DNA of 44,951 bases from Catajapyx aquilonaris (lineage: Eukaryota). Every line of letters starts with the position of its first letter. The first letter of the stretch is position 1. The notes beneath the pieces were generated by a model. It was given only the letters and a program-made list of their open reading frames with translations, was not told where the DNA came from and made no database searches. A program made the translations under genes and the position numbers. Location of the stretch: positions 1 through 44,951 of the forward strand of contig KZ538849.1 of assembly GCA_000934665.2 (NCBI GenBank). The letters are read 5' to 3'. Positions 10,001-35,487 of the stretch are shown piece after piece.

Positions 10001-12635
10001 AAAAATTCGTCTGTCCTTGACATGAATACATCATGGCCTCCTGACTGTACAATCTTTGCTCTAGCGCAGAAGAACGCCCATGAAACATGTGCATAGCATA
10101 TTGATATGCAGTGGTTAATAGCCTGATACGATAAAGAAAGAAGAAATAGTAAAACCAATGTACAGTATTTGTAGCAACCTGCCACCATTAGAAAAGCATG
10201 CAGCTGGCAGTCTTTACCAGCTCTTTACCTGCATAGGGTAATCACTTGTAATTTGGAGGCTGCTTTCGATTAAGACAATTGTCTCTCTCCATATGTCATA
10301 TCTGTCCACGTAGATGTATGAGTACAAGGACGCAACTTTTTTGCAGGCAGTGATCACATCAGAATGATCACAATTTCTCTCTCCTTCCTGTGAGGATTAT
10401 TTACCAATAAAATTATTAGGGTGTCCTATTTTCAAAGGTTTAGAAAAATTACAAATGGGTACTTTGCAAAATCACTATCCTAATTTCAGTGTTTATTTTC
10501 TAACTATGGCACAAGAAGGGTGCACACGTTGGAAAAGATCTTAACATGTAAAAGAGTACAGTGAAACCTGTCTAAAGTGAAATAGCTCAATCCACGGATA
10601 TTCCATAAGGAACATTTCTTACTTAGACAAAAGTGCATTAAAAATCAGCAGCTGGAATCAGAGAAAATTTCATTTTGGCCAAGTATCTGCAGTAAATAGG
10701 GTTCATTACAGACATGAGACATGCCACTGTTAAATTTTCATTTAATTTAGCTACTTTTAAGAGAGAAAACCCCCTATTGATCTTTCCTTCCTGTTCCTAA
10801 CTGAAACCAACAGTTCTCAGCACATTATGCCAAACATCTGTAGTGTTACCACTGTATATACAGCTGCTTAAACCTACCTTGCTGTGGTACTCTTTCCAAC
10901 TTTCCTTCCACTTCTCCACAAACACTTGGGCAATATGCTGTACATCAGTAAAGCATATTTCTCCAGTAGCCTGGCTATTTGCAAGAACACCAAGGCTTGC
11001 TGCTGCACAATGCATAATCTCAGAGTCCACATGTGTCTCCACAATGTCTTTCAGTACTCCCAACACATCATTGAGATAAATCTCCAGGCCATCAAAATTG
11101 TGGGTCAGGTCTAAATATTGAATTAATTTTACTATGGGAACCAGGTTCTCATGTACACTACCAAACTTTATCAAATCGGGTAATTCTTTTAAAAAATGCT
11201 GTGTTCCAAGCATTCGCTTCTCGATGATTTTGTCAAGCTCATCAGTGGATGCACCCTGGAAGAGTTTTTAAATTCATTATAACATATGCAGAGATACAAA
11301 AAAAATTACATGTGGCTAATGACTGCATTTAGATGGATTCAGATTATTCACATCTCACAGTCAGATGTGGAAGGGCGTGGTCTTACCAACTACACCACTG
11401 TGCTTCCCTCCCACTACCTGGCCATAACTGTGTTGTGATTGTATTGTATTGTATTGTGTGTAAATCTAGGAAAGATTATGAATGTGTATCATAATGTAAT
11501 ACCATTTTTGCCAATAAACTATCTGGCACAAAAAGGTTGAGGTGGGAATTTCTTCATGAGAAAAGGTTAGGAAATGTTGTCTCAGTCTTCCTTTCATTCC
11601 TATGCTACAGGGTCATCGAAAAAGAATGTCCCAGTTTGAAAACTCTATAACTCAAAAACTTGTAGACATATCTTAATGATTTAAGTTTTGAAATGCTAAG
11701 AGGTGTCTAATGTTTTGTCCTTACCATAAATGTTTCGATATGAGCTACATGTGTCGCTCGAAAAATTTAAATACGGTAATCGGTGTCGTGCCAAACCCGC
11801 TCCAGCATGTCTGGCGTTACCGTTGCAATCTTATCCCGTAGGTGCTAGTGATGCCGGATCTTTTCACCATACATGTGTCTCCACAAAAAAGTCAATTGGG
11901 GTAAGATCTGGGCTTCTGGAGGGACTAAGCATAGTGAAACTTCTCATTAAAGACTTCGCACACTGGGAGGCTGAACAAATGAAACTTTCCTACGGCAGGT
12001 TTGTTTCATGGATGAGGCGACTTTTTATGTGAATCATCAAGAACAATGTGTGTGGTGTAAAGACCCAAGATATCCAGCACCTACGGGATAGGACTGCAAC
12101 GGTAACTCCAGATATGATTGATAGGGTTTGTCACAACACCGATTACCACCTTTTAAAATCTTCCGAGCGACACATGAAGTTCATATCGAAACAAACTAAG
12201 GTGAGACCAAAACCTTAGACCTTTCTTAGCATTTCAACACTTAAATAATTCAGATATGTCTACAAGATTTCGAGTTATAGGGGAGGTGGAGTGGTGCTGC
12301 GGTAACGTATGCGCCCACGGATGTTAAGGTCCCGGGTTCGATCTCAGCCTGGGGACACCCCCTTCATCTCGTGCAGAGTTCAGGGTCACCTCTGGCTTCG
12401 TCTCGGGTGGTATTTCCACAGACTAAACCATCAGGGGGAGTTCACTAAAAATGGTCACGTTTAAGACATTGCACTGCACCTTGCACATCCCCTCCTGTCA
12501 TCCTGCCCGTGGGCCCGGGCGATTCGCTCAAGGTTCCAGCATTGTACTGCATTGTACTTCAAGTATAATAAAGGTCCGTGCCGCATACCCTATATAGGGT
12601 CAGGCACTACCCAAGGATTATTATTATTATTATTA

Positions 12636-13611: not shown

Positions 13612-16600
13612 ATGTTGATTAGCATTATGAGTCATTTTTTGTTTGTAATACTTAGAAAACTTATGAATGATGATGTCGATGTGGAAATATAGGCATATTT
13701 TTTACTTTCCTTGTCTGAGGGTGGGGTTGAAACTGGGTGTCCCCTAGGAGGGACACTCGGCAAATGCACCACATGTGGACCGGCAAGTCAAGTACTGGTA
13801 CTCTTTTTTTTTTTTTTTTTTTACGTCACCCCGTGCTAGGGCCATGGGTCCTTATAGGGGGGTGGGATACCACCATTTTCTTCAATTTTCTATTTTTTCT
13901 TCTTCACTCCGGTGCAAGGATGAAAGGACATGGGGAAGGGATAGGGGATTTTTGGGGAGGGAACATGGGTGCAAGGTGCACGTCTGAAAACGGGTCATGT
14001 TCTGTTCCCCAGGAGGTTAGGTTGCCAGACACCTCCTTGGTGCAGGTCAGAGACCCTCCCGACGCAGGTGAAAGGAAAGTTCCCCAGGCGGGGATCGAAC
14101 CTGGGGCCTTTCACACAGCAAGCCGTGACGTTACCATCACGGCCACCACACCTCCCCAAGTACTGGTACTCTATAGGCTACTGTATGTGTGCGGATTTTG
14201 TGCGTTTTGTCGAACTGAATTTTTATGAATCCCTATTTTTAAAATGAGGGTTACCCGGCAACCATCGTAGCTATGGTAACCCACTGCCATGTACAATCAA
14301 ACATACATGCATACAAACTTTCGATTTTGGATCCAGTGAAACCTGTGTATAGCAGAATAGCACGGTGCCCTAAAAATCGTAATTGACAAGTTTCCGCTAA
14401 AAATTACGATTTTCCTAGTCATCAGCACCAAACGGGTAAGAGTGGAAGTGAACGCTGCAACGCCGCAAAGCATTGTGGGCAGAGGTGGTAGAGAGTGGGG
14501 AGAGAAAAAAAGTGGTGCTGTTTTTGCGGATCGCGCGCGAACCATTTAGCGATGTCGGATATATAAGGCCTAGTACGGTATATCAGCCGTTTCCGCTATA
14601 TTCGACACTGTATTTACGTCCTATGCATATGCCCGTTCCCGGAAAAATTCCGCAATGAACAAGTTTTTGTAACACTCGTCAGGGTAGGCTACGTTATGGA
14701 CAGGTTTCTCTACATATTTATCTAAAGTGAATCCTGTCCATAACGGACCCTGAACATAACGGAAACTTGCCTATTGCGGAATTTTTCTGGTAACCGGCGC
14801 ATGGAAAGTACACGATTTCCGCGTCGAATATAGCGGAAACTTGCTCATTACAGAAAATTTTATCATCCCGTGCATTTCCGCCATGCGCAGATTTCACTGA
14901 TATAGCTAGATGGGAAGTAAAACCTGTCTATAAGGGACCTTGTATATAACGGAAACTTGTTCATTGCGGAATATTCGAGTCCCGTGCATTTCCACTATGC
15001 ACAGGTAGTTTCACTGAATATAGCTAGATGGGAAGTAAAACCTGTCCACAACAGACCCTGTGGATAACGAAAACTTGCCTATTGCGGATTTTGTCTGGTA
15101 ACTGGCGTATGGAACATACACGATTTCCGTGTCGAATATAGCGGAAATTGTGTAATTTTCATACACCAGTTACCAGAAAAATTTCGCAATAGGCAAGTTT
15201 CCATTATACACAGGGTCTGTTGTGGACAGGTTTCACTGTATATTTATATACAGCGAAACCTGTACATATCTGAATAGCACGTGACTCTAAAATTCCGCAA
15301 TGAACACGTTTCTGTTATACCCTCCTGAGACCAGAGAAGCCATTTGTGCAATTATTTAGTAATACTTTGGAAGAACCCTCTGTAGTGGAGGTGTAGAAGC
15401 CATTTTTCAGAATTTCATATTTTTGTTGCAATCACTTATCGCAAAATTAGATGATTGTCCTATATATAGGACATTGGGTCTTAGCTATAACATTCCTTCT
15501 CTATATTTTTCAATGAATTTTTAAAAAACTTTTATCTTTATTTCAATACAGCAGTCTATATCTTACGTTTTCCTTGTACAGTATAGGGCTCCATACTAGA
15601 TGTTACATTTGCCGGGTGTCCCCTATAGGGGACGGCCCTTTTCTTACAATCTAGCATTCTATCATTTTTTAAATAATTTTTGTTGTGTTTTGGGGACTAT
15701 TATGAACTAATAAAAACAAACAAAAAACAAAATTTAAACAAAAAATCTTTCAGGTATATCTGGGTTAATTATAACAGGTTTGTCCACTAACATGTGCATG
15801 CATTAGCACTACAAATGTATTAACTTACATAACATCACAACTGGTTAGGGGGTCCAAAAAACTTGGCCCAATTCACATGAAAAATGCTTCATGTTCAAGT
15901 AATATTAATAAGGCTTGCCTATAAATGGCTCTGGTACGTTTTAAATGTGCAGCACTTACTTTTTTCCAACGCTTCCCAGTTTCAATCTGCTTCATGCTTA
16001 ATGTCATTAGTTGGAAAAGGAATCCAATTTCTACAGGTTCCAGCTTCTCTTCATTTTCTCTATCCTCCAAGAGTAAGGTAGTCATGGTTTTCCAATCAGT
16101 TACCAAATCATGTACTCCTAGTAGTGACTCCACAATTACATCAAGGTATGTAACCAACTACAAAAAAAAGTTGCATAAGTTTTTCAAACTATTACTGATG
16201 ATTACCGTAATAAACTATTTTAAATCATGCCAAACTAGTTCCAATCCTTGCATCCTTAGCATCAGAAAGGACAAGGATCATGTATTGGCTACTGGTAATG
16301 CCTTGGGTAATGCTCACCTTTCTTGAAATGATGTAATACACAAAATGTCTTAGAATCATAGTATTTGATGGTTTCTTCTTCCGTTTGCCTCGAGAGACTT
16401 TCACTTTACAATCTTTCACCAGCTCATCCATGAAGAACTTTCCTGCTGTTGTGAATATGTCCCTCTTACTAGAGCACACCAAGAGGAGCAGACCACTCTC
16501 CCGAAAATTGTCAATGCTTAGATTGTGACAACCACATCTGTAACAGAAGTATGTTACACTAGATAGACACCACTCATTATTTTATCGTGATTTTTATATT

Positions 16601-17269
16601 TAAAGATGCTGCAGCACTTCTTCACATACTGTATGAAATCAGAAATGATTTTAAAATAGTAGTCAACAAAGAAGCGGCTGGTGCCTTAAGCCTCACCTGA
16701 ATATTTCAAGGAGAACCTTCATTGCAAGGTCGGATGTTGTTAAATTTGAATTCTTTGTCAGACTAATCACATGTGCCTCGTAGATACTAGTGCGTTTCTT
16801 CAGATAGGGGATGACGTTAGGTGAAGCGAACAAGACACCCAAACTCTGCAGGTAAAATATTAAATATATGAAAGCACAGTTCCATATAATTCAGATACAG
16901 TGTGTACGTTGAATCCCTTCTCCACTGAGGAAATGCAGTGCGGGCAGGGGTGTCACGAGAAAACTTTGGCAGGATACATGCTAAATGTACACAGCTAGCA
17001 TGCACACGTGGACAATTTTGGCAGGGTATTGCGATGCATATTATATCTGTGTACCCCCTCTGTAACATCCCTTGCTGTTTTATGATGTCATGTCAGCTGT
17101 CAGAAATCAGGTTTTAAGGACCAAGGACTCACCAGGTCACATTCTACATGTTACATTTGGTATGATTCACCAAGAGCTTAGCTCTTGGATTCACTAATAT
17201 CTTGCCAATATTGTTGCCTGCAATGAATCATGTAAGAAGCTTGGGGGGGGGGGGGGGNNNNNNNNNNNN

Positions 17270-17300
<31 letters not shown>

Positions 17301-20300
17301 GAGAGTCATCTTGACCAAACAGTGAAGTAAATGACCTGACTCAGAGGGATCTAACCAGCCTCAATAGAAAAGAGCCCTTGGAAGTCCTCATTAAGGTTAC
17401 ATATCCAAGCATTGGCATGTAAAGTAGAAATCTGGGGGAGTCTATAGATATAATTTTTTTTGGCCCAACCATGAATGATTGTAACTGCAATAGAAGGTTG
17501 TTGTAAATCGTCTTATGGATAGCAGCATTCATGAAATAGTTAGAGAAGGCTGTATTATCCTCCTGTAGGGGAGGCGGAGTGGTGCTGCGGTAACGTTTGC
17601 GCCCACAGATGTAAGGGCCCCGGGTTCGATCCCAAGCCCAGGCTTTCCCCCCTTCATCTCGTGCAGAGTTGGGTGTCTCTGGCTGCGTTTTGGGTGGGAC
17701 TCCTTGAGACTAACCACCCGGGGGAGTTCACAAAATGTACCATTACAGACATTGCATTTTGCACATTGCACATCCCCTCCCACTCATCCATGCCTGTGGG
17801 CCCGCCCGGGTGCTTCGCTAAAGGTCCATAGTGTTGCAGTCATGGTTCATGAACACATTTGCCTCAGCAAAATCTCCTCGCTTTCGATATCTTACCATCC
17901 TACAACTGAACAGAAGGGGGGCCTCAAGTGTTGGTTGTAAAAGCCAATTTGAATATTTTTCTTCACAAAAGAGAGAACCTTTTCAGGTTGGTAACATGGG
18001 ACAAAACTTGGACTCCACATTTCTGTCAGGAAACAAAAATGGCGTCAAAACATTGGGAACACATGGTTTCTCCACCTTCCTAAAAGTTCAGGGTGCAGCA
18101 GTCAACTTCAAAGTAGATTGTCATAAAATCTTCTTGGATTGAGGTGGTGTTATGATGTTAAGTTTATAGGGAAGAGGGGCACAATCAATATGGAGGTAGT
18201 TTTTACACCAACTGTCTATGTATGTTGAGACAGGAATTGAGAAAGAAGATGCTATGGCATTGATGTTTTCCAGAGGAACAGTGGCTGATGGCCTGCCAAG
18301 AATGAGGGTCATCTTCCAGACTCTCTCCAACTTCTCAGAATATTTAAAAAAATTATTTATTTATTTATTGTACCCCGTGATGACCCTTACGGGTTCTATA
18401 GGGGGGTGGTACACCACCATTTTTCCTCAATTTTCTAAGTTAACTTCACTCCGGTGCAGGGAATCAAGGAGATTGGGTAAGGATAGGGATTTTCCGGGAG
18501 GGGACAGTTCAATGTCTCAAGTTTGGGCCATATGCAGTCCTCCAGGAGGTTAGGTTGCCAGACACCTCCAAGGTGCAGGTCAGAAACCCTCCCGACGCAG
18601 GTGAAAGGAAACACNCCCCCAGGCAGGGATCGAACCTGATGGAACCTTTCACTCAGCAAGTCGAGAAGCTACCATCTCGGCCACCACACCTCCCTCCTTC
18701 TCAGAATAGTGCGGCCGATTTCTTCAGAGTTGAATATGATTGAGTATAATTCCCCAGTGTCTCTTTGTGGCTGTCCTTTGGCATAATAATAATAATGCTC
18801 TAGTCATGCGGCAAAGATATCATTAACACCCAACCTACACATAATGGTAAGATTACTGAAATAATATGTACTTATTAGCTGGTAGGCCTAAATTTTGTTA
18901 TGAGGCTCACCTGATACTGTACAAGGGCATGACATAAAATAATGGCAACACCTCTATTTACTAGTACATTCATGTGGAATATTATTGTCACAAAAAATAG
19001 CTTACGCACATTCCTTAAACATGATCCCTTCCCATATTCATTGCCTTTTGCACTGGGCAAGTGGGCATCTTCATCTGAAGAAGAGAGCATCCTAATATAT
19101 TTTGTGTGAAAATGTGCTCCTTGCAGGCATATCTTCTTTGCAAAGTGGCTGGCTGTATATGGCAATAATTCAGCATCACTTGCTCTCTGAAAACCTAGTG
19201 AACATTTCCAAGCATTGACATTTCTGTTTTTAACCATGTTGTTACTCTGTCTTGGTGAATATCTCTTTAGGGAGGACCTGCCTGATGATGTAACTTTACA
19301 ACGTTCCACAATAATATTGTATCCTAATGGAGTGAACTTGTGAATCTCTGCCCATCTCAAATTCCACACAATCTATTAATGACAGTAGACATAACAACTA
19401 CATCCAATGATTGTACAGCACAAAATGACTGTGTTGCCACTACTTTATATTTAACACTCCTAATAAAGAAGGTAACAAAAGAAAACAATACAGTGGGACC
19501 CACTTATTTGGACCACATCGGGGCCACGGCATTTTGGCCCAATAAAGCGGGGGTTCAATTAACCTGGGTTCTTGTGAAACAACGGGGAAAAAACGCAAAA
19601 GATTAGACTGCACTACCAGCATTAATCCTCAAAAATTATTGCACAACAGGTGAAGGTAAAATCAATGTATAAAAGTGACTGTGTCATGCAAGTGTCATGT
19701 AAATGCAAAGTACTGTACTGTACAGTAATTTTAGTGCTCACTCACTGTAAAAAATTGTCTAGTAACATCTGTCGGGTTCTTGTTTTTGACTTCAGGTTAA
19801 CAAAGTTCGTGCAGGTGTCGAGTGCAGTCACAGGACCACCGTCATTCCCTACTTGCATAAAAAATCGTCAGTAGTATAGCATTATAGCAACTAAACTGGT
19901 CCGACTAACTGGGGAAATCACCACCTATGCGGGGAAAAATTACATTTATGGGATTGATTTGATTCCAGCCCTGGTGATTTGGTCCAAAAATGCAGGGGGG
20001 GCCAATAAATTGGGCCACCGATAAAGCAGGTCGCACTGTATTATAATAAATATAACTGACACATGCTGCACAAACATCACCTGTAACATTTTGTGTACCA
20101 CCCCTGGATCGGAATCTGCTAGAAGGCATTCAACAAGACCGAACACTTCTGGCTTGGTAAACTTTGCAGGAAAAATCACTACCCATTCAGTCAATTCTTC
20201 TATAACTAGCTGGCGAATCTTCACGCTTGAATCCATGCAGCGCTTTGCGTACACATTGTCAAGCAACTTTGCAATAACGCTATCCAAGTTTTTCTCAAGA

Positions 20301-22120
20301 CGTTTAAGGCCATTTATGATTTTGTCCAATTTCCTGTTGCTCTTAGTATTGTCTGTATGTTCATGCTTTTGCTTTTCATACTCCTTCTTGTTCGTCTGAT
20401 TATCACGCAGCATTTCAACAAGCGCTGTTATCATCTTGAGCGCTGCAATTCAAAATGATTAATATTTGAATGTTGCAATCACATTTCCCACAAATTGCCA
20501 AATATTCCCAGCCAAAAAAGTCAAATATTTGAAGGGGTAGAAAGAGAGGAAAAATGGGTCTTATATTATAGCAAGGCAACTTTTACTTCCCTCCCCCCCC
20601 ACATTCTGAACAGAGTTAAATGATTTTCTCATAATTATTTTATAATGGTTAAAATTGAGGAGAAACTGACTCATTTTCTACACCATCCCATTGCAAAATA
20701 CATGTTTTTCTTCAACAGTGAAAGTTTAAAGAATGCAACTAAGTTTTGCCTCATATGTCAACAAAAGCTGCAGTTACACAGTGCCTATACACTTACCCAC
20801 AAATGCATAATAATATAAAATGGATTAAACTGCAAACCTGCTCTTGCTGGCACTTCACGATATTCCTCAATGTGCGAGCTTGACAAGCATATTAAAAAGT
20901 TGGAAAGGATATCCAGCACTGCATCATTATTCATGATATCTTGTTTCATTTTAAACACAACAGATATCATGAACTCATCGAACATAGGCATCAGTGTCCT
21001 TCTATCATTCCTCGTCATAAAGAAGTTTTGAGGTTTACCCTGAAAAATAATGTGACATTCAAATAAAGTAAGTCTAAGATGGGACTACCATTAAAGGCAT
21101 GAATATTTTCTGTGAAGTTTGTAAGGCTTAACCCCTCAGGCTAAATTCTGAGAGGCTTGGACGAGCCACACTAGAGGCATTCCACATGAACTGGGCCATC
21201 TTTTACATTCAGTGTCTCTACTTTCAATCAAATTAAGGATATTTTGTGGTACTAAAAGACAAACCCTATTATTGGATAAACTGGTTTTGGCATCTGCTGA
21301 ATGGTTTCATACAGGGTGCGGAAATTTAATGTAGGGTTGCTTTGGGGGATGCAGGGTTCTAGGGGATCATTTTAAGTATAGGAATCATGGGTCTCCAAAG
21401 CATGTTACCAAAAAAATGAGCATCAAGAAGTTAAAAGTGCATTTTCCCAGCGTGTATGTACGGATACAGCCTACGACATTTCCATCGCCTAGGCCAGTGG
21501 TTCCCAACGTTTTTCGGGTCGCGGCCCCCTTTTATGATAGTCAAGTAACCTGCGACAGCCTCCCCCCCCCCCCTCTTCCGAGTATTAGTAGAAGGTTAAG
21601 GAAGTGTCGACATATTAAAGCATATTTTAAAACCCGTGGTAAAATTTCCTATAAAATTTTTGCAAGTAAAAATTATCACGACACCACGAGACTCCCTGGA
21701 AAAGGCTTCACGACCCACAGGTTGGGAAACACTGGTCTAGGGCTCTAGGCCATTTCCTGTTATGCCTAATGGGATCCTATCTTAAATTTAAATTGCATGA
21801 TAACACCTCAATAACGTAAATGGGGAGGCGGAGTGAACATATGCGCCCACAGATGTTAAGGTCCTGGGTTCGATCCCAGCCCAGGGTTCCCCCCTTCATC
21901 TCGTGCAGAGTTGGGCCATCTCTGGCTTCATCTCAGGTGGAATTTCCATAGACTAATCCACCCGGGGGAATTCACAAAATGACCACACCTAAGACATTGC
22001 ACTGCACTTTGCACATCCCCTCCTGTCATTCTGCCCGTGGGCCCAGGCGTTACTTAAAAAGGCTCCAATATATGTACGAGACATAAATAAAGGTCTGATA
22101 AGGTCAAGCACTATACCCGG

Positions 22121-22182
<62 letters not shown>

Positions 22183-25100
22183 ATTATTATTATCATCATT
22201 AACCGAAGCAGGTTGGCATAGTGGATAAGGCGTCCGACTGCTAATCGGGAGGTCCTGGGTTCGAATCCCGGGGCCGGCAACTCTGACCGTGGTTTTCTGT
22301 GGTTTCCCACGGTCCTTCCAGGGAAATTCCGGAGTTGTTTCCGTAATTAACAGGCCACAGCCGCTTCCTTCCGTCCCTATCCCATCCCAAAAAGTGCAGT
22401 AAAATGAAAGCAAAGAGTTCCAGGCAAAAGAAAAACTTCCCCCCTAAAGAGCCGAAAAAGGCTGATAACGGGGTATGAATTGTTATTATCATCATTATCA
22501 TTATTGTTGTTGTTGTTGTTGTTGTTGATGTTGATGTTATTATTATTTATTAACGTAAATGGAAAAAGTAAGGTCGCGTAGAGGGATGCATACCTGCCAG
22601 GATATTTTATAACTTAGTTTGTGTTTGTCACTCATTGTCTCGGTAACTATGCTTCGGATACCCATGATTACTGATACTTAAAATGATCGCCTAGAACCCT
22701 TCTACCATCCCCCAAAGTCATGGTATGTTAAATTTCTGCACCCTGTATATGCTGCAGGCACCTGTAACTGCGGGGTTTTTTTTTTTTTTTTTTTTGGTGT
22801 GCAGGTCACATTATGGAATCAGAAGTTACCTGTTCACCCCATGTGAAGGTAATAATAATTAATAATTCATACCCCGTTATCAGCCATCGGCTCTTTAGGG
22901 GGGAAGTTTGTTTTGCCTGGAACTATTAGCTTTTCATTTTACTGTGCTCTTTGGGGTAGGATAGGAAAGGAAGGAAGTGGCTGTGGCCTATTAATTACGG
23001 AAGCAACTCCAGAATTTTCCTGAAGGACCGTGGGAAACCACAGAAAACCACGGTCAGAGTTGCCGGCCCCGGGATTTGATCCCAGGACCTCCCGATTAGG
23101 AGTCGGACACCATATTCCCTCCTCCAAACTGCTTCGGTCCACGCCATGTGAAGGTCTAATACACTGCATTATTTTAGGACAGCTTAATTTTTTGTATACT
23201 TTTTCTCGCCAATACACTTATTTTTCATTCCACTCAAAGATTAATCTCAGGCATTTGTTCTAAATGCAGTATTAGGAATTTTTCATTTTACAACACTGGA
23301 TACATTTTAAAAATTGGCATATAAAATATCTTCAGCATATCTGATTTATGGCAACCAAGTCTGTGTAAAATAAATGACACTGTATCTGTCCCATTCGAAT
23401 CTTCCCTATTTGAGTGTCATTTCATTACACAGCCAAAATTTTGCTTCTTGAGTGATTTCCAACAAATGCAAGAAGATTCACCTTTTTACTCACAATGCGT
23501 TTATCCCATTCTTACATGAGAAACTGAATGAGGCAATAAATTCTTTTGCAACCTATTTATTGTCAAGTGAAATAATGTGAGGCAATAGAACCACCAACTG
23601 ATGGGCACAATTACTCCACTCTGATGTATTGTAGAAAATTATAATTCCACCAAAAGAATTTCAAAATGAAAATGCCAAAATGTACTAAACTGTACAAGTC
23701 CCTTTCTATTAAAAATTAGTACAGTAAAATGGATATATCATCTATGAAGTGTACTTTAATAGATCCCAGTGAGACAAGTTCATTTCAAAAAGCAATTTTC
23801 TTCTCCATGTTTTTCCTGAACACACCTGTCTCCCATTTTAATCATGTGCTCACAAGCAAGGAGACAGGAAGCAGTACAATCAGAATCACCCCAGAACACC
23901 TACATGTAGAGATATTCAGCTGGGAGAGATGAATCAGTATTCATCATGATGCCACCTTCCCCTGCAATTCATTTTAAACTCGAAAATATTGCTTGCACAT
24001 GAGAATAGCTGAGCCACTGATGCCAAATTGTATGTTTGTCTTTGCCACTTCAGGTGTGTAATTTTAATCCCCATAAAAAAAATATTTCAAGTGTCCATAA
24101 CTGACATATTCAAACTGTTGGGCATGATATTTGAAGGCACAAAAAACTAGGTGCTCACAAGATCTCATAAAATAATAGAACAGCCCCATTTTGCATCCTG
24201 GCATACGATATACAAGTGATATCATAACCTGCACTCTAAAATTGTTGGCATTATCTGCATATCAACACTAGTAGACGCTGAAACAGCTTTGCCACAAAAT
24301 ATTTTGTTGGTGCTACAGAAATGTACCATACATGATATTACAAATTGAATAAGAAATATGGGATAGATGACCTGTTTCACTTGGAATGCCTAAGTAATTT
24401 TCACATCCCCTGGTAACACCATGTGAAGTAATACCTGGTAAAACTCAGAAAAGAACTTTCTTGATAGTGTCTCAGGGTGCTCATCACGCTTCATGCCAAC
24501 AGCTACTTTAGCGTCAAATCCAATCATGTGGATTACAAGTTGCATTAGTCTTAATGTAGACACATTCTTATCATGCTGGTACTTATCATACCAACACTGC
24601 ACAATCTCCTACAAAAAGGAAAACATATTATCGTAATGTAAAAAATGTCACACAAATTATAAAGTGGCAAATAAAAATTACTGCCTTGCCTCCATGTTTG
24701 CATTCCTTTGGGCCAATTTATACATGACACTACCATGATCGAGCAAAGGGAACTTCCTTTTTTTACATGGCTTCTTCATCTTATTATGAGGCTTTTTCTT
24801 GGGATCACTTCTTCGCTCACCATGATCCTGAATTTCATCTTTCTTGTCAGATATATTGTCAAGATCGCTTTCTGCCTCAGGGGGCATAATGTCTGGATCG
24901 CTTGTTGCGTCAGGGGTCATGTCTGGATACCTTATTGCTGCCTCAGGGGACATACTGTCTGGCAAGCTTATTGCTGCCTCAAGGGGCAATCTGTCTGGAT
25001 GGCTTGTTACATCAAAGGACACAGTGACTGGATGGCTTGCTGTCTCAAGGGACACACGGACTGGATCGCTTGTTGCCTCAGGGGACACACTGTCTGGAAA

Positions 25101-28100
25101 GCATTCTGACTCAGGATACATATTGTTGGGATAGCTTGTAGCCCAAGGAGACATAATGTCTGGATCGTTTGTTGCCTCAGGGGACACACGGACTGGATCG
25201 CTTGTTGCCTCAGGGGACACACTGGCTGGATCGCTTGATGCCTCAGGGGACACACTGTCCGGAAAGCTTTCTGACTCAGGATACATATTGTTGGGATAGC
25301 TTGTAGCCCAAGGAGACATAATGTCTGGATCGTTTGTTGCCTCAGGGGTCATGTCACCTGGATCGCTTGTTGCCTCAGGGGACACACTGACTGGATCGCT
25401 TGTTGCCTCAGGGGACACACTGACTGGATCGCTTGTTGCCTCAGGGGACACACTGACTGGATCGCTTGTGGCCTCAGGGGACATATTGTCTGGATCGCTT
25501 ATTGCTGGCTCTAAAGGCATACAGTCTGGATGGCTTGCTGCCTCAGCATACATACTGTGTGGATAGAATGGTGGTGCATCAGGGGACATAGTATGGGTAG
25601 CTTGTTGCTGCAGGGGATATATTGTCTGGGTTTCTTGTTGCCCCAGGGATGGCTGGATCGCTTGTTGCCCCACGGGATACACTGTCTGGATCGCTTGTTG
25701 CCCCACAAGATAAATTGGCTGGGTTGCTAGTTGCCACATAGGATACATTGTCTGGGTTGCTTGTTGCCCCATGGGATATATTGCCTGGATGGCTGGTTGC
25801 CCCAGGATATACATTGTTTGGATCACTGGTTGCCCCATGGGATACATTGTCTGAATCACTGGTTGCCCCAGGGGATACATTGTCTGAATCACTGGTTGCC
25901 CCAGGGGATACATTGTCTGGATCGCTGGTTGCCCCAGGATATACATTGTCTGGGTTGCTTGTTGCCCCAGGGGATACATACTGTCTGGATAGATTGTTGC
26001 CTCAAGGGGCATACTGGCTGGATGGCTTGTCACCTCATGGGACATTTCATCTGCTTCATGTGGTATTTCGCCATGACCACGTCGATTGACTCGGCGACCA
26101 CCTGATATGGGTAGTGATACACGCTTCCTCTTTTTGCCCACATTCTTTGTGATATCTGTTTTAAACATATCAAAATACAATAAAATGTTAATAATACTAT
26201 TACCTTCCAGTCTATTGCCAAGTTTCATGGGGAAACGATTTCTTTAGGCAAAGAAAATTAACTAGTTACCCCCAGATGAATATTGTACCCACAGTAATCT
26301 TATCACATTCCAAGACATATAGGGGCCATTTACACAGCATTGAGGAACTCGGATCCATATTCCACTATACCAGTCGTCCAATATTATATTTTGATTGCCA
26401 CTTTCTGACCACTGTATTGCCAATAACAGATTGTCGATAATCTGGTTTTATGTCAACATGGATGAATGCTGTTGGTTATGTTGCCATCTTTTTTGATGCC
26501 AACATTTATTCAATTTGATATTTTGTCACATAATCATATCTGGATTGGGAATAGTGGACCTGTTATGGTTCCTTGGTTCCATGTAAATGACATTGTATAT
26601 CTTGCAGGTAAAGGTGGGAATTGTTACAAATGTCCCTCATTATACTTGTAACTCCATGTTTCAAAATATTACCAAGGCAATAACTTACTGAGAGAGTCAT
26701 CTCTTGAGACCACAATAGTAACCGTCTCTCCTCTTACTCAGGCACACACCTGATTCCGGTTTATACTTCGTTGATTTCACAGCAGAGAAAATCACATATG
26801 GGTCATTCCATGTCAGTTCATCCAGCCATGTCACCCACCATCTCAGATTTTCTTGAAATTTTAACTGGGCAAACTGTGTACTGAGAAACTAATATCCTGA
26901 AAATTTTAGCCTCCTAGCTCTTATAGTTCTTGAGCTATGGCCAGGCAAATGAGGGTGCAAATGGCTACGGCAGAGTTGTGAAGGCACGACTTGTTTTTCA
27001 AAATATTTTATTGTGTGTTAACTAATTGGTGTAGAAAGTTGAAAATATTTGTACTTATGCACATAAACCTTCCGATTCCAAAAACGCTGTCAGATTTGTG
27101 CTGAGATCATATCTTCACACATTAATCAATAACATTATTTGTTGGCATGACCTTGAAACTTTCACAGCTCATTCCCAAAATGTGTATCCTCCAATTTTCA
27201 TGCAATTGCACCAAAAGAAAGGTCTTGAAGTCTACTTTCAGGAGGTGTAAAAATTTGTCTGTGTATTTTGGTTTTTCACCTTGATAATGGCACATTAACA
27301 CAAAGTTTCAATCAACAAGACTGTTCTCTTGACACACTCCTTCAGATTGCTATATAATTACTCCAGTATCTGGACATGATAATTTGAGTCTCATTCGTTG
27401 GCCTAAAGAGGACACAATTACATTTTACAGTGTCTATTTGGCAACACCCCACTTATACAAGTGGCAACACAGTTCCTAACTATAGCAGCACGGTGTGAAA
27501 CTGGCAACATGTTGGCAGGTGAATCACTCACTCTAGATCCAAAGTTCATCATTGTGCACCTGCACATTCAAAATGGCCAGTTCACATTGTTCAGTTGGCC
27601 TATTAGTGAATGATCCCTGCCATAAAACCAGTTATACCAGTGTTCTGGGGAAAAAAGTGTGTCAGAACTAAGCATGAGGAAAACCAGGAGAGTCTTGCAT
27701 TGCGAATTGGAGTACCAAAGAGCAATTTGGTCACCCTTTGCCTGCACCATGCAAGTGAACTCTTTTGTTGCATGTGTTTACGATCACCATTGGTATCTTG
27801 GGGTTGTGGATGAAATGGGAAAACATGACTTTGATGGTGATGTATATGTGAAATTTATGCATCCACATGGCCCAGCAAGATCCTACTATTGGCCAAATCC
27901 TGATGATAAGTGCTGGGTTCCAGTGCTATGTGTGGTAGGAATGCCTACTACTGCAACTGGAAGGCAATACCAACTGTCACGGGTGTCATCCAAGGACACT
28001 GAAGCTGCTTGGTGTAGTTTCACGAAAAAGGAAAGTGACTTATAACATGTAAGTTGAAATAAGTTTTGCTTTGGTGTTGTGTCTTTACAAAAATAATTAT

Positions 28101-31100
28101 ACCTACCTGGAAAATTTCATTTTTGAACACGCTTAAGTACACTTTTTCATGGTGCAGGCAAAAGGTGACCAAATTGCTCTTTGGTACTCCAATTCGCAAT
28201 GCAAGAATCTCCTGGTTTTCCTCACTTAGTTCTGACACACTTTTTTCCCCAACAACACTGGTATAACTGGTTTTATGGCAGGGATCATTCACTAATAGGC
28301 CAACTGAACAATGTGAACTGGCCATTTTGAATGTGCAGGTGCACAATGATGAACTTTGGATCTAGAGTTAGTGATTCACCTGCCCACATGTTGCCAGTTT
28401 CACACCATGCTGCTATAGATAGGAACTGTGTTGCCACTTGTATAAGTGGGGTGTTGCCAAATAGACACTGTAAAATGTAATTGTGTCCTCTTTAGGCCAA
28501 CGAATGAGACTCAAATTATCATGTCCAGATACTGGAGTAATTATATAGCAATCTGAAGGAGTGTGTCAAAGAACAGTCTTGTTGATTGACACTTTGTGTT
28601 AATGTACCATTATCAAGGTGAAAAACCAAAATACACAGACAAATTTTTACACCTCCTGAAAGTAGACTTCAAGACCTTTCTTTTGGTGCAATTTCATTAA
28701 AATTGGAGGATACACATTTTGGGAATGAGCTGTGAAAGTTTCAAGGTCATGCCAACAAATGTTATTGATTAATGTGTGAAGATATGATCTCAGCACAAAT
28801 CTGACAGCGTTTTTGGAATCGGAAGGTTTATGTGCATAAGTACAAATATTTTCAACTTTCTACACCAATTAGTTAACACACAATAAAATATTTTGAAAAA
28901 CAAGTCGTGCCTTCACAACTCTGCCGTAGCCATTTGCACCCTCATTTGCCTGGCCATAGCTCAAGAACTATAAGAGCTAGGAGGCTAAAATTTTCAGGAT
29001 ATCAGTTTCTCAGTACACAGTTTGCCCAGATAAAATTTCAAGAAAATCTGAGATGGTGGGTGACATGGCTGGATGAACTGACATGGAATGACCCATATTT
29101 CATTACACAGCCCACCAAATGAACAGTGTTCCTCATAATGTATATAACAGTATCTACCTCTAATAATGGTAAATTATTCCAAAAATTAAACTTAAAAATA
29201 AAATAATCATTGTTCAACCTGCTGTGACCATTAATATTGCATTAGTCCACAAATTCCATATTAGATACTACTTTTCATTTAAATTAGGCTACACCACTTA
29301 CAAAGACCAATGCAAAAAAAACACACACACACACACACTCACGTGATAAAGTGCTATCCTTGTGAGGGTCTGGCAAAAATAAAAATTTAAAACTAACCTA
29401 ACCTAACCTAACCTAACCTACAAAATACACACGAAATTTTGGTGACCTATTTTTTCACAGTAAAAAGGAGGTCTTGGCTTGATTTTCCGCCATCCTTGTG
29501 AGGACTGTATACATTATGAGGGCCTGAAAAAAGTCCTCGTAAGATTTTCGGTCCTCACAAGGATAGGAAACTTGCGAAAAATATCCTCACAAGGATAGCA
29601 ATGTCTGATCACACATACACACACCCATTAGCACAATATTATTCTAGGGGAATGTGTGATTGGGAACTAATATGGTCCTATATGCAGCCAGTTATCTGAT
29701 ACAGCTTATTGTTAGTTTGATTAACAGGTCACTCTAGGTCATTGACGTGTCTCAGGTCACTTTCAGAAAACAGACTCACTTGCACTATTGACACTGTTGA
29801 CCTTACTAACAGTCAGTACTATGTATTACAGGATAATGACAGTGTGTCGACTTTTTTAAAGCAAGTGGGAAACTAGAACAGATGACTTGTGAGTCACAGT
29901 AAAATAAATTGTGCCCTTTGCATCTAATAACAGATTGATCCTGACCATAATATAACGGGTCATCGAGCATTACTTATGTCCATTGCCATACACAATTTAA
30001 TTTACATATTTCAAGAGAGCTGGACAAAATAATGGATAAAAATCCAACGTTGTGATGATGAGCATTTACTTGACATCCACTGTACCCTGGACAATCAAAT
30101 CATTGACTGGTCATTCAAGTGTAACTGGGGAAAGCAACTAATCAATAAGCAACATTATTATATGGCTATCTGGCTGTAACAAAGAGCAGTTAAGTAACTG
30201 GGAGTGAAAGGGCGAGTGAGTGAAAGAGAGGTGTTAACTCTCTTTGTATCTGCTGCCTCCCACCACACAACAACGCCCCTTTGTTACTGGCATGGTACAC
30301 TGACTAGTCTTCCCCAACACAACAGCTGGACGACTGTCCAACTCCACTTGCCCAATGCCCCAACCCTGCTCACTTCCAACAATGCCAGCAATGCAAAGTG
30401 AGCGGCAATGAAACGCCTGCCACGCCAACAATACCCTTTCCCTGTTCGAATCCATGCAAGCCGGCACAACCAGACACGACCCTCCCTGGTGAGACCCTCC
30501 CCAGAGCCCAGACAAGGAACACGACCCTAATTCGCACTTACCTGCTGCTGGGGCTGTCTCAGAGGCGTTGAGGAAGGCCCTCGGGCCGCCCTGAACACAA
30601 TTTTCCCGTTTTTCTCACCGCAAAACCGCTCTAGAACACAGCCGAACAGGAGAGGGGATGATGAGGGAAAAGGGGGAGGGAAGGGGAGGGATGGCGTCCC
30701 AACCGACACGGCGGGCGGATGGATACGGTCGGAAGCGATCCCGCGCGAAATGAGATCTGCCCGCCCACTCCCGCCTTCTTCCCAATACAACACCCAACAA
30801 CTAGGCAACACTGATGCATACGTACGTGGGACATGGAGCCTGATCGTGCACCTGGACAATTACTGTACTGTGTATTTTATTCAGTGGAGGGAAAATACTG
30901 CGGGGGACTATATACCGCAGCGGAGGCGCCATTGATGGCTTGGGGCTCTTTTTCCATACAGATATTATGGGTACGACGCGACGTCTGCTATTTGCGGAAT
31001 GGACGCCGCCATTTTTAGTCAGGCGATTCGAATGATTCAAACGACGATGCCGGAAGAGCCTCAATAAATAAGCCTTAATGCCTTACACATATATTTAATA

Positions 31101-31304
31101 ACATATTTTATTATCATGACTTAATATTCCCATGCTATCCATTGTGCTTATATGCTTCATTGTGCATACATGAGCATGACACGGCACCAATTAACTATTA
31201 AGGCATTCGCTGGCTTTCATTTTAGAGGTGCATATCTGAAGCCGTCCTTGTTATGGCCTGAGATTACCCTCGAAGCTAAAATATTAAATGATAACACAAA
31301 GAAA

Positions 31305-31376
<72 letters not shown>

Positions 31377-31537
31377 GTATGGATCCGACTTCATATACTG
31401 CATCAGTATAGCTTACCCTTTGTCATCCAGCAATTGAGTTTTCGCTGTCTTACTTCTTGACGTGTATAAGCGTCGCCACATTCTTTGAATCTATGCTCGA
31501 GATTGTCAATGTCATGATTAGCGTCATCAGCGACCAC
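6954..31537 (-). CDS. SA: Divergent cohesin subunit SA/STAG (stromalin) paralog, multi-exon gene, about 1500 aa; 5' end uncertain
   Basis: Hand-spliced chain of 19 exons, frame-consistent throughout, GT-AG except one GC-AG: 31537-31417, 26155-24690, 24608-24435, 21039-20838, 20442-20081, 16845-16697, 16537-16318, 16157-15960, 11255-10878, 10387-10229, 10122-9946, 9450-9279, 9187-9060, 8975-8814, 7995-7814, 7720-7596, 7521-7476, 7384-7322, 7071-6954 (TGA). Peptides are collinear with STAG1/2 as I recall them: PARAALKMITALV vs TLAAMKLMTALV, IRQLVIEELTEW vs IRAICIEEIGVW, VTDWKTMTTLLLED vs LKDWECMTELLLEE, HKDYDYTMKKTL vs [12 protein letters not shown]. Confidence 0.9.
7322..7384 (-). CDS. SA: SA C-terminal small exon (SNGTGIDEASSGASTSAMSD)
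   Basis: ttcag and gtaaat sites, phase 2 to 2; Ser-rich tail. Confidence 0.65.
7476..7521 (-). CDS. SA: SA C-terminal small exon (GTPSQKHSSPEHEAP)
   Basis: tacag and gtacgt sites, phase 1 to 2; no homology support. Confidence 0.6.
7596..7720 (-). CDS. SA: SA exon LKFLNHALKKK...VQTQ
   Basis: Phase-consistent (2 to 1), tgtag and gtaggg sites; end of the HEAT region. Confidence 0.8.
7814..7995 (-). CDS. SA: SA exon KLASDLAEFF...FMKNGFDYAL...IPFIDVIASM
   Basis: Matches ELARRFALTF...LHKDGIEFAF...LAFLEVLSEF. Confidence 0.88.
8037..8162. mobile_element. Second copy of the palindromic ggtggaattttc MITE
   Basis: tggaattttc...gaaaattcca termini with ttagcagta repeats. Confidence 0.6.
8469..8615. 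mobile_element. PIF/Harbinger (Tourist-like) MITE
   Basis: Perfect TIR gggccgttttctcgaacagtggttcaaatgtaaac, TTA duplication. Confidence 0.85.
8814..8975 (-). CDS. SA: SA exon VHKDYDYTMKKTL...AKSK
   Basis: Matches [32 protein letters not shown]. Confidence 0.9.
9060..9187 (-). CDS. SA: SA exon ENQLCSK...ACNLVKYGMFSEQNVAKIFQHYGQ
   Basis: Matches [24 protein letters not shown]. Confidence 0.88.
9279..9450 (-). CDS. SA: SA exon AFITTCQLVETL...CGNN
   Basis: Hand-translated; matches AFMLLCDLL...LVFNPD; tctag and gtgagg sites. Confidence 0.85.
9946..10122 (-). CDS. SA: SA exon AINHCISICYAHVSW...ELHNH
   Basis: Matches ALQCSHYSILW; atcag and gtgagt sites. Confidence 0.85.
10229..10387 (-). CDS. 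SA: SA exon EGERNCDHSDVITACKKVASLY...DYPMQ
   Basis: Hand-translated; matches [23 protein letters not shown]...WDLF; cacag and gtaaag sites. Confidence 0.85.
10878..11255 (-). CDS. SA: SA exon GASTDELD...TQHFLKELPDLI...EYHSK
   Basis: Matches TEHFIITLPMLLSKY...QYFDL...VEKHVESDVL; tccag and gtaggt sites. Confidence 0.9.
11608..12730. mobile_element. Palindromic Tc1/mariner (DD37D/maT-like) derivative with a nested SINE
   Basis: TA-cagggtcatcgaaaaagaatgtccca...tgggacattctttttcgatgaccctg-TA; arms of about 240 bp; SPDLTPIDFF on the minus strand near 11885-11915. Confidence 0.8.
12280..12682 (+). mobile_element. tRNA-derived SINE family 1, full length
   Basis: A/B boxes (gtggtgctgcgg; ggttcgatct), (ATT)n tail, TSD cgagttataggg. 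Confidence 0.9.
13524..13608. repeat. (TA)n microsatellite
   Basis: Direct observation. Confidence 0.98.
13805..14157 (-). mobile_element. tRNA-derived SINE family 2, full length
   Basis: Poly-A tail, TSD aagtactggtactct. Confidence 0.9.
14333..15320. mobile_element. Cluster of tandem and inverted pogo/Tigger-like MITE copies
   Basis: Repeated cagtgaaacctgt / acaggtttcactg termini and ggaaacttgcctattgcgga motifs in both orientations; direct repeat tatagctagatgggaagtaaaacctgtc. Confidence 0.6.
15960..16157 (-). CDS. SA: SA exon LVTYLDVIVESLL...KRWKK
   Basis: Matches HAAYLVDSLW...DWECMTELLLEE; tgtag and gtaagt sites. Confidence 0.9.
16318..16537 (-). CDS. SA: SA exon ...LVCSSKRDIFTTAGKFF...IISRK
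   Basis: Matches LVYSAHRPVAVAAGEFL; tacag and gtgagc sites. Confidence 0.9.
16697..16845 (-). CDS. SA: SA exon SLGVLFASPNVIPYLKKRTSIYEAHVISLTKN...EIF
   Basis: Not in the ORF track; translated by hand; matches [32 protein letters not shown]; tgcag and gtgagg sites. Confidence 0.88.
17258..17269. other. Assembly gap (N run within poly-G)
   Basis: 12 Ns. Confidence 0.99.
17568..17840 (+). mobile_element. tRNA-derived SINE family 1, 3'-truncated
   Basis: Homologous to the 12280 copy. Confidence 0.85.
18230..18830 (-). pseudogene. Decayed mariner transposase N-terminal (HTH) fragment interrupted by a SINE
   Basis: After removing the SINE it reads MPKDSHKETLGNYTQSYSTLKKSAALF*EVGESLEDDPHS/GRPSATVPLENINAI, like mariner SYSTVKKW...ESLEDDPRSGRP. 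Confidence 0.65.
18343..18694 (-). mobile_element. tRNA-derived SINE family 2
   Basis: TSD cttctcagaata; inserted in the mariner remnant. Confidence 0.9.
19491..20038. mobile_element. pogo/Tigger-like MITE
   Basis: TA-cagtgggacc...ggtcgcactg-TA with degenerate subterminal ggccaataaa motifs. Confidence 0.5.
20081..20442 (-). CDS. SA: SA exon spanning the STAG/SCD region ALKMITALV...VVHKMLQ
   Basis: Gapless match to the stromalin conserved domain; tgcag and gtgatg sites. Confidence 0.92.
20838..21039 (-). CDS. SA: SA exon GKPQNFFMTRN...EEYREVPARA
   Basis: Matches STAG [48 protein letters not shown]; canonical sites. Confidence 0.9.
21495..21734. mobile_element. hAT MITE, same family as 5975-6185, opposite orientation
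   Basis: cagtggttcccaac...gttgggaaacactg; shared internal sequence (tttatgatagtcaagtaacctg); degenerate 8-bp TSD. Confidence 0.85.
21822..22200 (+). mobile_element. tRNA-derived SINE family 1
   Basis: Homologous body, (ATT)n tail; TSD taacgtaaatgg repeated at 22551. Confidence 0.85.
22203..22480 (+). mobile_element. tRNA-derived SINE family 3, inserted in the tail of a family 1 SINE
   Basis: tggcatagtgg A box, ggttcgaatccc B box; flanked by ttattatcatcatta. Confidence 0.85.
22852..23138 (-). mobile_element. tRNA-derived SINE family 3
   Basis: Reverse copy of 22203-22480; TSD ccatgtgaaggt. Confidence 0.85.
24435..24608 (-). CDS. SA: SA exon EIVQCWYDKYQHDKNVSTLRLMQLVIHMIG...
   Basis: Matches STAG [29 protein letters not shown]; tgtag and gtatta splice sites. 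Confidence 0.88.
24690..26155 (-). CDS. SA: SA gene large exon: basic NLS-like segment, tandem-repeat extension and start of the STAG domain
   Basis: Within ORF 24678-26228; aaacag acceptor; ends VMYKLAQRNANME at a GC donor (GAG|gcaagg), matching STAG LFEVVKLGKSAMQ. Confidence 0.8.
24855..26045 (-). repeat. Coding 33-nt tandem repeat array (about 36 units)
   Basis: Consensus on the minus strand roughly tcccctgaggcaacaagcgatccagacagtatg; encodes VSPEATSDPVS or MYPLGQQATQT depending on frame. Confidence 0.95.
26800..29094. mobile_element. Sola2-like DNA transposon derivative with about 950-bp near-perfect inverted arms
   Basis: GGGTCATTCC...GGAATGACCC termini, ATAT on both sides; arms 26800-27751 and 28148-29094. 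The spacer encodes FVACVYDHHWYLG...VKFMHPHGPARSYYWP...PTTATGRQY, a domain I recall from transposase C-termini. Confidence 0.8.
29321..29625. mobile_element. (CA)n-flanked MITE with internal (AACCT)n repeat
   Basis: Inverted tgctatccttgtgagg / cctcacaaggatagca ends, CA microsatellite on both sides, TTAGG-type repeat at about 29393-29420. Confidence 0.65.
30542..31020 (-). promoter_or_regulatory. CpG-rich segment ending in a perfect CAG|GTAAGT donor: candidate promoter or alternative non-coding first exon
   Basis: Locally high CpG content, GCCGCCATTTT (YY1/Pho-like) near 31005, donor at 30542/30541. Could instead be a retroelement 5' region. Confidence 0.35.
31305..31375. repeat. (ATT)n microsatellite
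   Basis: Direct observation. Confidence 0.98.
31417..31537 (-). CDS. SA: Probable 5' exon of the SA gene (VVADDAN...WMTK, ends phase 1)
   Basis: ctcttgtag acceptor, G|gtaagc donor, open frame joining in phase to the 26155 acceptor; in-frame ATG at 31426. No homology support. Confidence 0.55.
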
Positions 31538-35463: not shown

Positions 35464-35487
35464 AATTTGTAGTGCCCCTCGATTAGT

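Follow-up and report, generated by a model that had tools for sequence, protein, structure and literature searches.

A 33-nucleotide tandem repeat read in two frames in a putative 5′ exon of a STAG-type cohesin gene of Catajapyx aquilonaris

Results

The repeat array and its reading frames

The stretch from position 1 to 44,951 of contig KZ538849.1 in the Catajapyx aquilonaris assembly GCA_000934665.2 (44,951 nucleotides [nt], referred to here as the window) carries on its minus strand a series of exons with matches to the cohesin SA/STAG (Scc3) family and, upstream of these in gene orientation, a long open reading frame (ORF) that contains an array of a 33-nt repeat (Table 1). Tandem Repeats Finder (TRF) reported the array as a single one, with a period of 33, 35.8 copies, 76% matches, 4% indels, and a score of 796. 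A 17-nt core of the unit, searched for with up to 3 mismatches, gave 28 matches, every one of them on the minus strand and within positions 24867-26041; the chance expectation is 0.23, and 0 of 100 shuffles reached 28. Thirty-five units were anchored on a 10-nt core, and one 36-nt unit missed by this anchor brings the count to 22 downstream units and 36 in total. The period is divisible by 3 and the array lies within a 516-codon ORF, as in a coding minisatellite or variable number tandem repeat. The units fall into two upstream units in an acidic frame, a glutamine-rich block (Q block) with 11 units of 33 nt and one of 27 nt, and a downstream acidic block, in which the three frames hold 0, 7, and 21 stops. 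Within the downstream acidic block, five consecutive units occur twice (25352-25188 and 25187-25023), a higher-order duplication that TRF did not report as a separate period.

Table 1. Positions in the window of the repeat array, its parts, and the exons and other features of the putative STAG-type gene
Feature	Positions	Strand	Basis
33-nt tandem array, ~36 units	24863..26045	-	TRF and core matches
516-codon ORF containing the array, putative large 5′ coding exon	24678..26228 (stop to stop 24681-26243)	-	ORF list
Two upstream units, acidic frame	25980..26045	-	33-nt steps; core in codon phase 2
+2 junction: two additional bases where the last acidic unit upstream meets the first Q unit	25976..25977	-	core spacing, register alignment
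Q block: 12 units of MYPLGQPVIQT type in the shifted frame, covering 390 nt (130 codons)	25590..25979	-	
-2 junction: next unit without its first two bases, frame restored	25585..25586	-	core spacing, junction sequence
Downstream acidic block: 732 nt, 244 codons, ~22 units, VSPEATSDPVS type	24858..25589	-	
Higher-order duplication: five units, 165 nt, two copies	25023..25352	-	152/165 bases identical
Putative 81-nt GC-AG intron	24609..24689	-	read from sequence
Next exon, homologous to where the folded part of cohesin SA proteins begins	24393..24608	-	9/9 PDB matches SA-1 or SA-2, E 0.024-0.9
STAG-domain exon (weak)	20788..21084	-	Pfam PF08514, E 0.0033, 17.7 bits (cut-off 25)
Stromalin conservative domain (SCD) exon	19949..20449	-	Pfam PF21581, E 3e-05, 24.7 bits (cut-off 27.5)
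HEAT_SCC3-SA exon	15876..16157	-	Pfam PF24571, E 3.8e-11, 43.9 bits (cut-off 25), profile 3-57
HEAT_SCC3-SA exon	10800..11267	-	Pfam PF24571, E 7.8e-14, 52.7 bits (cut-off 25), profile 69-195
CpG island ~4 kb upstream as the gene is read, possibly a promoter or first exon	30400..31400	.	

Followed along the ORF, the core of the repeat sits in codon phase 2 in the first 2 units, in phase 1 in the next 12, and in phase 2 again in the remaining 21 anchored units. The spacing of the cores places the two changes of phase: it measures 35 nt from the core at 26001 to that at 25966, two more than a unit, and 33 nt thereafter with one step of 27 nt, and after 25609 two units together cover 67 nt, which equals 33 + 36 - 2. 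When Q and acidic units are aligned in DNA register, no indel falls inside any unit, and the frame-changing shifts are confined to the two borders of the Q block. Because the block is displaced by two bases relative to the frame, an identical DNA repeat reads as an acidic peptide outside the block and as an uncharged, Q-rich one inside it; the unshifted reference for this comparison is internal, namely the flanking units of the same array. Two indels not divisible by 3 (+2 and -2) jointly restore the frame, as in pairs of compensatory frameshifting mutations (pCFM).

The two-frame 33-nt repeat is a genuine feature of this DNA, as the original prediction, drawn from the letters of the stretch, had proposed; the 33-nt steps, the phase of the core, and the register alignment all agree on it. 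The two example units that had been quoted for the two frames are present unchanged at 25974 and 25448 and have 27 of 33 bases in common. The compensating shifts, which had been placed near 25975 (+2) and near 25590 (-2), could be refined to 25977-25976 and 25586/25585, and ORF 25007-25255, said to reproduce the Q-rich peptide in the alternative frame of the acidic block, does encode a peptide of that kind, which we read as CPLRQQAIQ type.

Chemistry and predicted structure of the two peptides

As read, the Q block (130 amino acids [aa]) has one acidic and no basic residue (net charge -1), no proline-directed serine or threonine site ([ST]P), and a grand average of hydropathy (GRAVY) of -0.13; it consists of glutamine to 23% (30 Q), proline to 12%, and threonine to 11%, with 11 tyrosines and 10 methionines. 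In the old frame, the same DNA would give 129 aa with 13 D+E, 2 K+R, 27% S+T, 4 [ST]P sites, and a GRAVY of -0.72. The downstream acidic block (244 aa) has a net charge of -43, 18% proline, 17% serine, 14 [ST]P sites, and a GRAVY of -0.60. The strong chemical contrast that had been predicted between the two segments is thus evident from their charged residues, with D+E/K+R of 1/0 per 130 aa in one and 47/4 per 244 aa in the other. Two further terms in that prediction reach further than these data. The segment is indeed uncharged and Q-rich, with 1 charged residue in 130, but "prion-like" is a weak description of a sequence that contains no asparagine and in which 38% of the residues are hydrophobic or aromatic (I, L, V, M, F, Y, or W); "de novo domain" is an overstatement for a low-complexity segment in which we saw no signal of selection (ratio of nonsynonymous to synonymous variation, pN/pS, of 0.81).

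AlphaFold2, run without an alignment on the 516-aa ORF, returned a mean predicted local distance difference test (pLDDT) score of 46.9 and a predicted template modeling (pTM) score of 0.20, with the acidic blocks below a pLDDT of 50. Inside the Q block (residues 84-213), it draws a single helix over residues 85-190, with 10-residue means of pLDDT between 54 and 77. We judged a 106-residue helix with 12% proline not to be credible, and the model therefore serves here solely to hint at a difference in predicted structural propensity between the two readings. The array would encode a long N-terminal tail that is predicted to be mostly disordered.

Subfamily structure of the array

The Q units form a subfamily of their own. 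Column 1 of the unit is A in 11/11 Q units and in 0/20 acidic units (Fisher 1e-8), column 9 is G in 9/11 against 2/20 (Fisher 1.3e-4), and column 30 is A in 9/11 against 4/20 (Fisher 1.7e-3); these tests do not include the Q unit of 27 nt or four acidic units that 3-nt insertions put out of register. The distance between the groups exceeds that within them by 2.35 differences (label permutation p ~2e-4; 0.043 without columns 1 and 9). The borders of the subfamily fall exactly on the two shifts, and the shifts sum to zero. Three subfamily substitutions turn the raw product of the shift, V-C-P-L-R-Q-Q..., into M-Y-P-L-G-Q-Q..., with loss of Cys and Arg, and in the old frame two of these same three are nonsynonymous and one is synonymous; this pattern is suggestive of adjustment after the shift and does not amount to a test. 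Within the Q block, the neighboring units at 25913 and 25880 are identical, variation is present at the CpG of the unit, and one 6-nt deletion has occurred. The old frame stays open through the Q block (140 codons), an observation that we rejected as evidence since no single substitution of the Q consensus unit makes a stop in that frame.

Read-derived contigs over the array

Four DNA runs, all from one sample and one study, contain 72-82% of the sampled words of 24300-26300, and three of them (X1, X2, and X3) were examined as Logan contigs; the runs are independent of the assembler, not of the sample. For X5, a run under the same species label but of another sample, no contig was placed on the region. 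The runs listed as containing this sequence include no RNA run, which has no bearing on expression. The +2 junction is bridged in all three by a contig of 201 nt (25890-26090) that has neither differences nor gaps, at depths of 19.5, 12.6, and 20.3, respectively. The -2 junction is bridged in X1 by a contig of 187 nt (25454-25640) that has a single difference and no gap, at a depth of 17; in X2 and X3, positions 25506-25572 are uncovered, and none of the pieces listed bridges this junction. The listings for the three runs contain no insertion or deletion compared with the window. Contigs over the array are short (82-350 nt), and none spans the whole of it. A joint of 24398 to 24642, whose shorter side has 23 letters, was not used as evidence.

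A contig of depth 511 in X3 links sequence near 25993 with sequence near 24939, with 7 other letters between them, and some array bins stand at a depth of 113-268. Unit-like sequence may be present elsewhere in the genome at high copy number.

Identity of the downstream gene

In the exon next to the array ORF, query residues 2-56 align with residues 98-152 of full-length human SA-2, and for the SCD exon, 9/10 PDB matches are to SA-1 or SA-2 (best E 9.7e-06, residues 221-345). The Pfam scores for STAG and SCD come from single exons and not from a spliced protein. Read with falling coordinates on the minus strand, the matches are collinear: SA residues 98-152, STAG, SCD, HEAT_SCC3-SA profile positions 3-57, and then positions 69-195. 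The downstream exons here match the HEAT_SCC3-SA profile and, with scores below the cut-offs, the STAG and SCD profiles in the order found in human SA-1 and SA-2, and the gene is, as judged from these matches, a divergent cohesin SA/STAG/Scc3 gene on the minus strand; that it might be a meiotic STAG3-like paralogue is a guess. The 156-aa HEAT exon had 0 homologues in a word-index protein search, and against 1.84 billion representatives it had 2 matches at E <=0.001, one of which is a 195-aa STAG-like fragment; the other, a bacterial GAF sensor, was judged spurious. Because the searches with this exon gave so few matches, orthologues could not be used to date the frame shift. A putative C-terminal exon at 7813-8028 had no PDB match and no Pfam match.

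Connection of the array to the gene

The array ORF would be the exon for an N-terminal tail of this STAG-type gene. The SA exon begins 81 nt past the last usable codon of the ORF, and both exons are in one frame. The putative intron between them has a length divisible by 3, a donor that follows a complete codon and begins with GC but otherwise fits the donor consensus, and an acceptor made of a T-rich tract and the AG before 24608. Since this AG and an in-frame stop precede the exon at 24608, it needs an upstream partner that ends on a complete codon; starting at residue 98, it cannot be extended upstream, the stop lying in its own acceptor. The last 19 residues of the ORF are predicted to be helical (H498-515 in the AlphaFold2 model run without an alignment), and they seem similar to the helix located ahead of residue 98 of the human SA proteins.

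Ahead of the first unit, the ORF is open through 66 unique codons, for which the empirical P is 0.024 against the local 4 kb and ~0.08 against the whole window, and it stays open for 57 codons downstream of the array. The Q frame is prone to stops yet contains 0 of them, with a chance probability of 0.075 if 45 independent differences are counted or 0.24 if 24 distinct variants are. Of the ATGs in the exon, 29/43 are in the ORF frame. The CpG island at 30400-31400, a candidate promoter, has an observed/expected ratio of CpG of 0.8-1.24; over most of 23-30 kb, the ratio is 0.06-0.4.

Past the acceptor proposed for the array exon, the first ATG (26143) is in the +1 frame and begins a short frame that closes at 26030, only slightly into the array. 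Were the exon to start near 26155, this frame (26143-26030) would act as an upstream ORF.

Other features of the window

The window is eukaryotic in appearance. Its GC content is 0.43, and CpG is strongly depleted outside a few islands. The conserved exons are small, with kilobases of repeat-rich DNA between them. ARAGORN calls a tRNA-Ser (GCT) at 22208-22279, in an intron of the STAG-type gene and adjoining AAT-type microsatellites; these microsatellites appear as runs of N or I in the ORF translations, and the call could represent a tRNA-derived short interspersed nuclear element rather than a gene. Farther upstream, there are nested inverted repeats pairing 32999-33205 with 35487-35693 (207 nt, 99%), as well as pairs at 35227-35470 and 37803-38046 (244 nt, 98%) and at 33945-34042 and 36546-36643 (98 nt, 91%). 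Between them lie long GC-rich ORFs without a Pfam match, e.g., 35900-37123, and the region 32999-38046 may be an inverted duplication or a mobile element. Fifteen N letters (17258-17269, 18615, 40385, and 40851) are gaps or masked bases in introns and upstream DNA. A 79-codon minus-strand ORF at 3-239 matches no Pfam family at E <=0.01 and resembles a fragment of a reverse transcriptase from a retrotransposon of the non-long terminal repeat (non-LTR) class.

Discussion

The best overall explanation of this locus, to which we give a probability of roughly 0.6, is that a minisatellite of coding type in the 5′ exon of a STAG-type gene acquired a compensated shift or patch that was later amplified. 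The process may have begun with a compensated frameshift on about the scale of one unit, with indels approximately 27-33 nt apart, or with a single out-of-register patch created by misaligned recombination. A few substitutions would then have been fixed in the founder unit, changing its new frame from V-C...R to M-Y...G, and the founder would have been amplified in tandem to 12 units; divergence afterwards would account for CpG decay, one 6-nt deletion, and one recent duplication. This is the order of events that we infer. A shift on the scale of a unit followed by amplification is favored because the subfamily borders coincide exactly with both shifts. The original prediction had named repeat expansion beside compensatory frameshifting, and its part is supported by the shifted units being a separate subfamily; two indels 390 nt apart that flip a ready-made block are less likely than a unit-scale event with amplification. 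The change was presumably tolerated through weak constraint on the tail and not selected for a new function.

The ready-made block would have consisted of 12 G-type units already present in the acidic frame (VSPGATSDPDN type) and then flipped whole by two independent 2-nt indels. It is true that the block, with its 140 open codons in the old frame, looks like a good acidic-type repeat there, and that pN/pS is slightly lower in that frame. The open frame is nevertheless uninformative, as its simulated probability of staying open is 0.81. Some of the variation at third positions of the old frame sits at the CpG of the unit, in a region where the observed/expected ratio of CpG is 0.06-0.4, and this variation therefore fits CpG decay rather than selection. 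By our arithmetic, the odds that two random indels among ~35 junctions fall on both borders are ~1 in 600, and an intermediate with a single indel would truncate the protein at the first stop in the +1 frame, near 25513-25499. We regard this origin as highly unlikely. It would surprise us still more if both 2-nt shifts were artefacts of assembly or sequencing in a gene that in reality keeps the acidic frame throughout. Such errors are conceivable here, as the shifts sit in linkers of alternating GT/AT that are prone to slippage, the array is hard to assemble and none of its short Logan contigs spans it, and all runs containing the sequence derive from one sample; against this, the k-mer contigs of three runs repeat the +2 junction exactly, that of one run repeats the -2 junction, no indel relative to the window is listed, and two errors would need to hit the borders of the unit subfamily exactly. 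The raw-read check that had been proposed as a way of exposing assembly errors was thus run in part, in that both junctions are bridged with 0 gaps but by contigs that probably come from the source sample of the assembly.

More serious is the possibility that the array is real DNA that is not translated in the way the long ORF implies, being part of an intron or a 5′ untranslated region (UTR) or lying upstream of the true start codon; the open frame and the compensation would then be by-products of a stop-poor unit and of 2-nt slippage in its alternating purine-pyrimidine linker. We consider this account unlikely, with a minor but real chance of being correct. Several of our results, together with those on the alleles given below, weigh against the explanation that we prefer, and most of them favor this one. 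An open ORF frame over 15 acidic units is expected by chance (P = 0.42), so that the openness of the array is not evidence of coding and we rejected the stop-free acidic block as such evidence. Among the Q units, pN/pS is 0.81 in the used frame and 0.61 in the old one, and the corresponding values among the acidic units are 1.30 (used frame) and 0.60 (+1 frame); the values in the used frames are near or above 1, and by this measure neither peptide shows signs of purifying selection. Neither these ratios nor codon-position counts, to which no significance test was applied, separate the frames. For the repeat exon, no homologue turned up among longer proteins or among those of similar length. 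Searched against the PDB, the last 57 residues of the ORF had no SA match, just 5 unrelated weak ones, and the link between the array and the STAG exon rests on the shared frame and on a putative intron of the rare GC-AG type, with its noncanonical donor. The out-of-frame ATG at 26143, the first past the putative acceptor, points the same way. A predicted repeat-built tail of >450 residues is also unusual, human SA-2 having ~97 residues before the aligned helix. Finally, the sample from which the reads derive is probably the source of the assembly, which lowers their value as independent support.

Set against an untranslated array are the 66 unique open codons upstream and the 57 downstream of it, and the end of the ORF 81 nt before, and in frame with, an exon that starts at SA residue 98 and cannot be extended upstream. 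The stop-prone Q frame is without a stop (P 0.075-0.24), a 5′ UTR containing 29 ATGs in frame and 14 out of frame would make a poor leader, and both shifts lie exactly at the subfamily borders and sum to zero. Taking the two sides together, we think it fairly likely that the array exon is coding as modeled, with splicing and translation as assumed here.

The contigs further suggest that the array may vary between alleles. The depth of the Q-block contig is about half that of the unique flanks (16.1/11.7/15.3 against 27.1/22.9/30.6 in X1/X2/X3), and variant letters at 26040 and 26060 stand at about half depth in X2 and X3. In all three runs, a contig departs from the window at 25600 and continues for 20 letters like another Q-type unit, in place of the -2 junction (25580-25600); it is probably a second allele of the array. 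The sample appears to be heterozygous at the array, as observed in the contigs of this one sample, and we read the contigs as allelic variation, of which the second allele is seen only in part. Allelic variation is usual for minisatellites. The -2 junction may not be fixed, the other allele apparently differing there, which also counts against the preferred history.

Ohno reportedly proposed in 1984 that internally repetitious coding sequences give long alternative frames that can be used after a frameshift. The principle is the same here, in that a second stop-free frame yields a long new peptide; his case is said to have concerned a whole new bacterial enzyme, whereas the present one would be an internal, frame-restored segment of a eukaryotic tail. 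A study of compensated frameshift pairs documents 624 candidate genes, with 6 of high confidence in which 7-99 nt separate the indels, and places them mostly in genes and regions of weak conservation (Biba et al. 2022, PMC8935012). The locus described here resembles them in that two short indels whose lengths are not multiples of 3 shift and then restore the frame, with the stretch in the new frame being translated in those cases. It differs from the high-confidence pairs in having 390 nt between the indels instead of 7-99 nt and in lying in a tandem array, where the shifted piece has apparently been amplified and the unshifted form is still present in the flanking units. As far as its searched text goes, that study required orthologues and mRNA support, whereas for this locus, known from its DNA, no orthologue was found, and the word "repeat" occurs twice in the searched passages, in the Introduction and in the references (PMC8935012). 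Two other papers report that coding segments with tandem repeats frequently have several open frames (Naamati et al. 2009, PMC2805694) and that a frameshift in protein tandem repeats produces a chemically different repeat, in many cases with greater hydrophobicity and less disorder (Osmanli et al. 2025, PMC12871928). In the portions seen of both, the alternative frames were translated in silico, whereas here both frames stand side by side in one natural ORF. Neither a natural protein that uses one repeat in two frames nor tail repeats of STAG3 or STAG proteins were found in the open-access literature, and we claim no priority. What would be new, if the exon is translated, is a compensated shift that arose inside a coding minisatellite and was amplified afterwards, with one ORF using both frames.

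The finding opens no long-standing question, and an untranslated array would be an ordinary minisatellite. A more far-reaching reading is that the shift of one unit made an uncharged, Tyr/Met/Gln-rich "sticker" in an acidic, phosphorylatable tail of a germ line cohesin and that this was selected, amplified to 12 units, and is still variable between alleles; this is speculative and, in our view, very unlikely. Were it true, the Q block would offer a natural and datable case of a frame switch in a coding minisatellite giving rise to a new module for interaction or condensation.

The switch changes the chemistry of the block considerably for an event of 2 bases: it removes ~11 net negative charges and all proline-directed Ser/Thr sites there (from 4 in the old frame to 0) and adds 11 Tyr and 10 Met. 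Provided that the exon is translated, one gene would have undergone repeat expansion, a frame switch, and a second expansion, this time of the switched unit, and because the ancestral form adjoins the derived form, no outgroup is needed to see these events. The locus would then extend the picture of compensated frameshifts, hitherto one of high-confidence cases with 7-99 nt between the indels, to repeat arrays, in which the shifted piece can grow.

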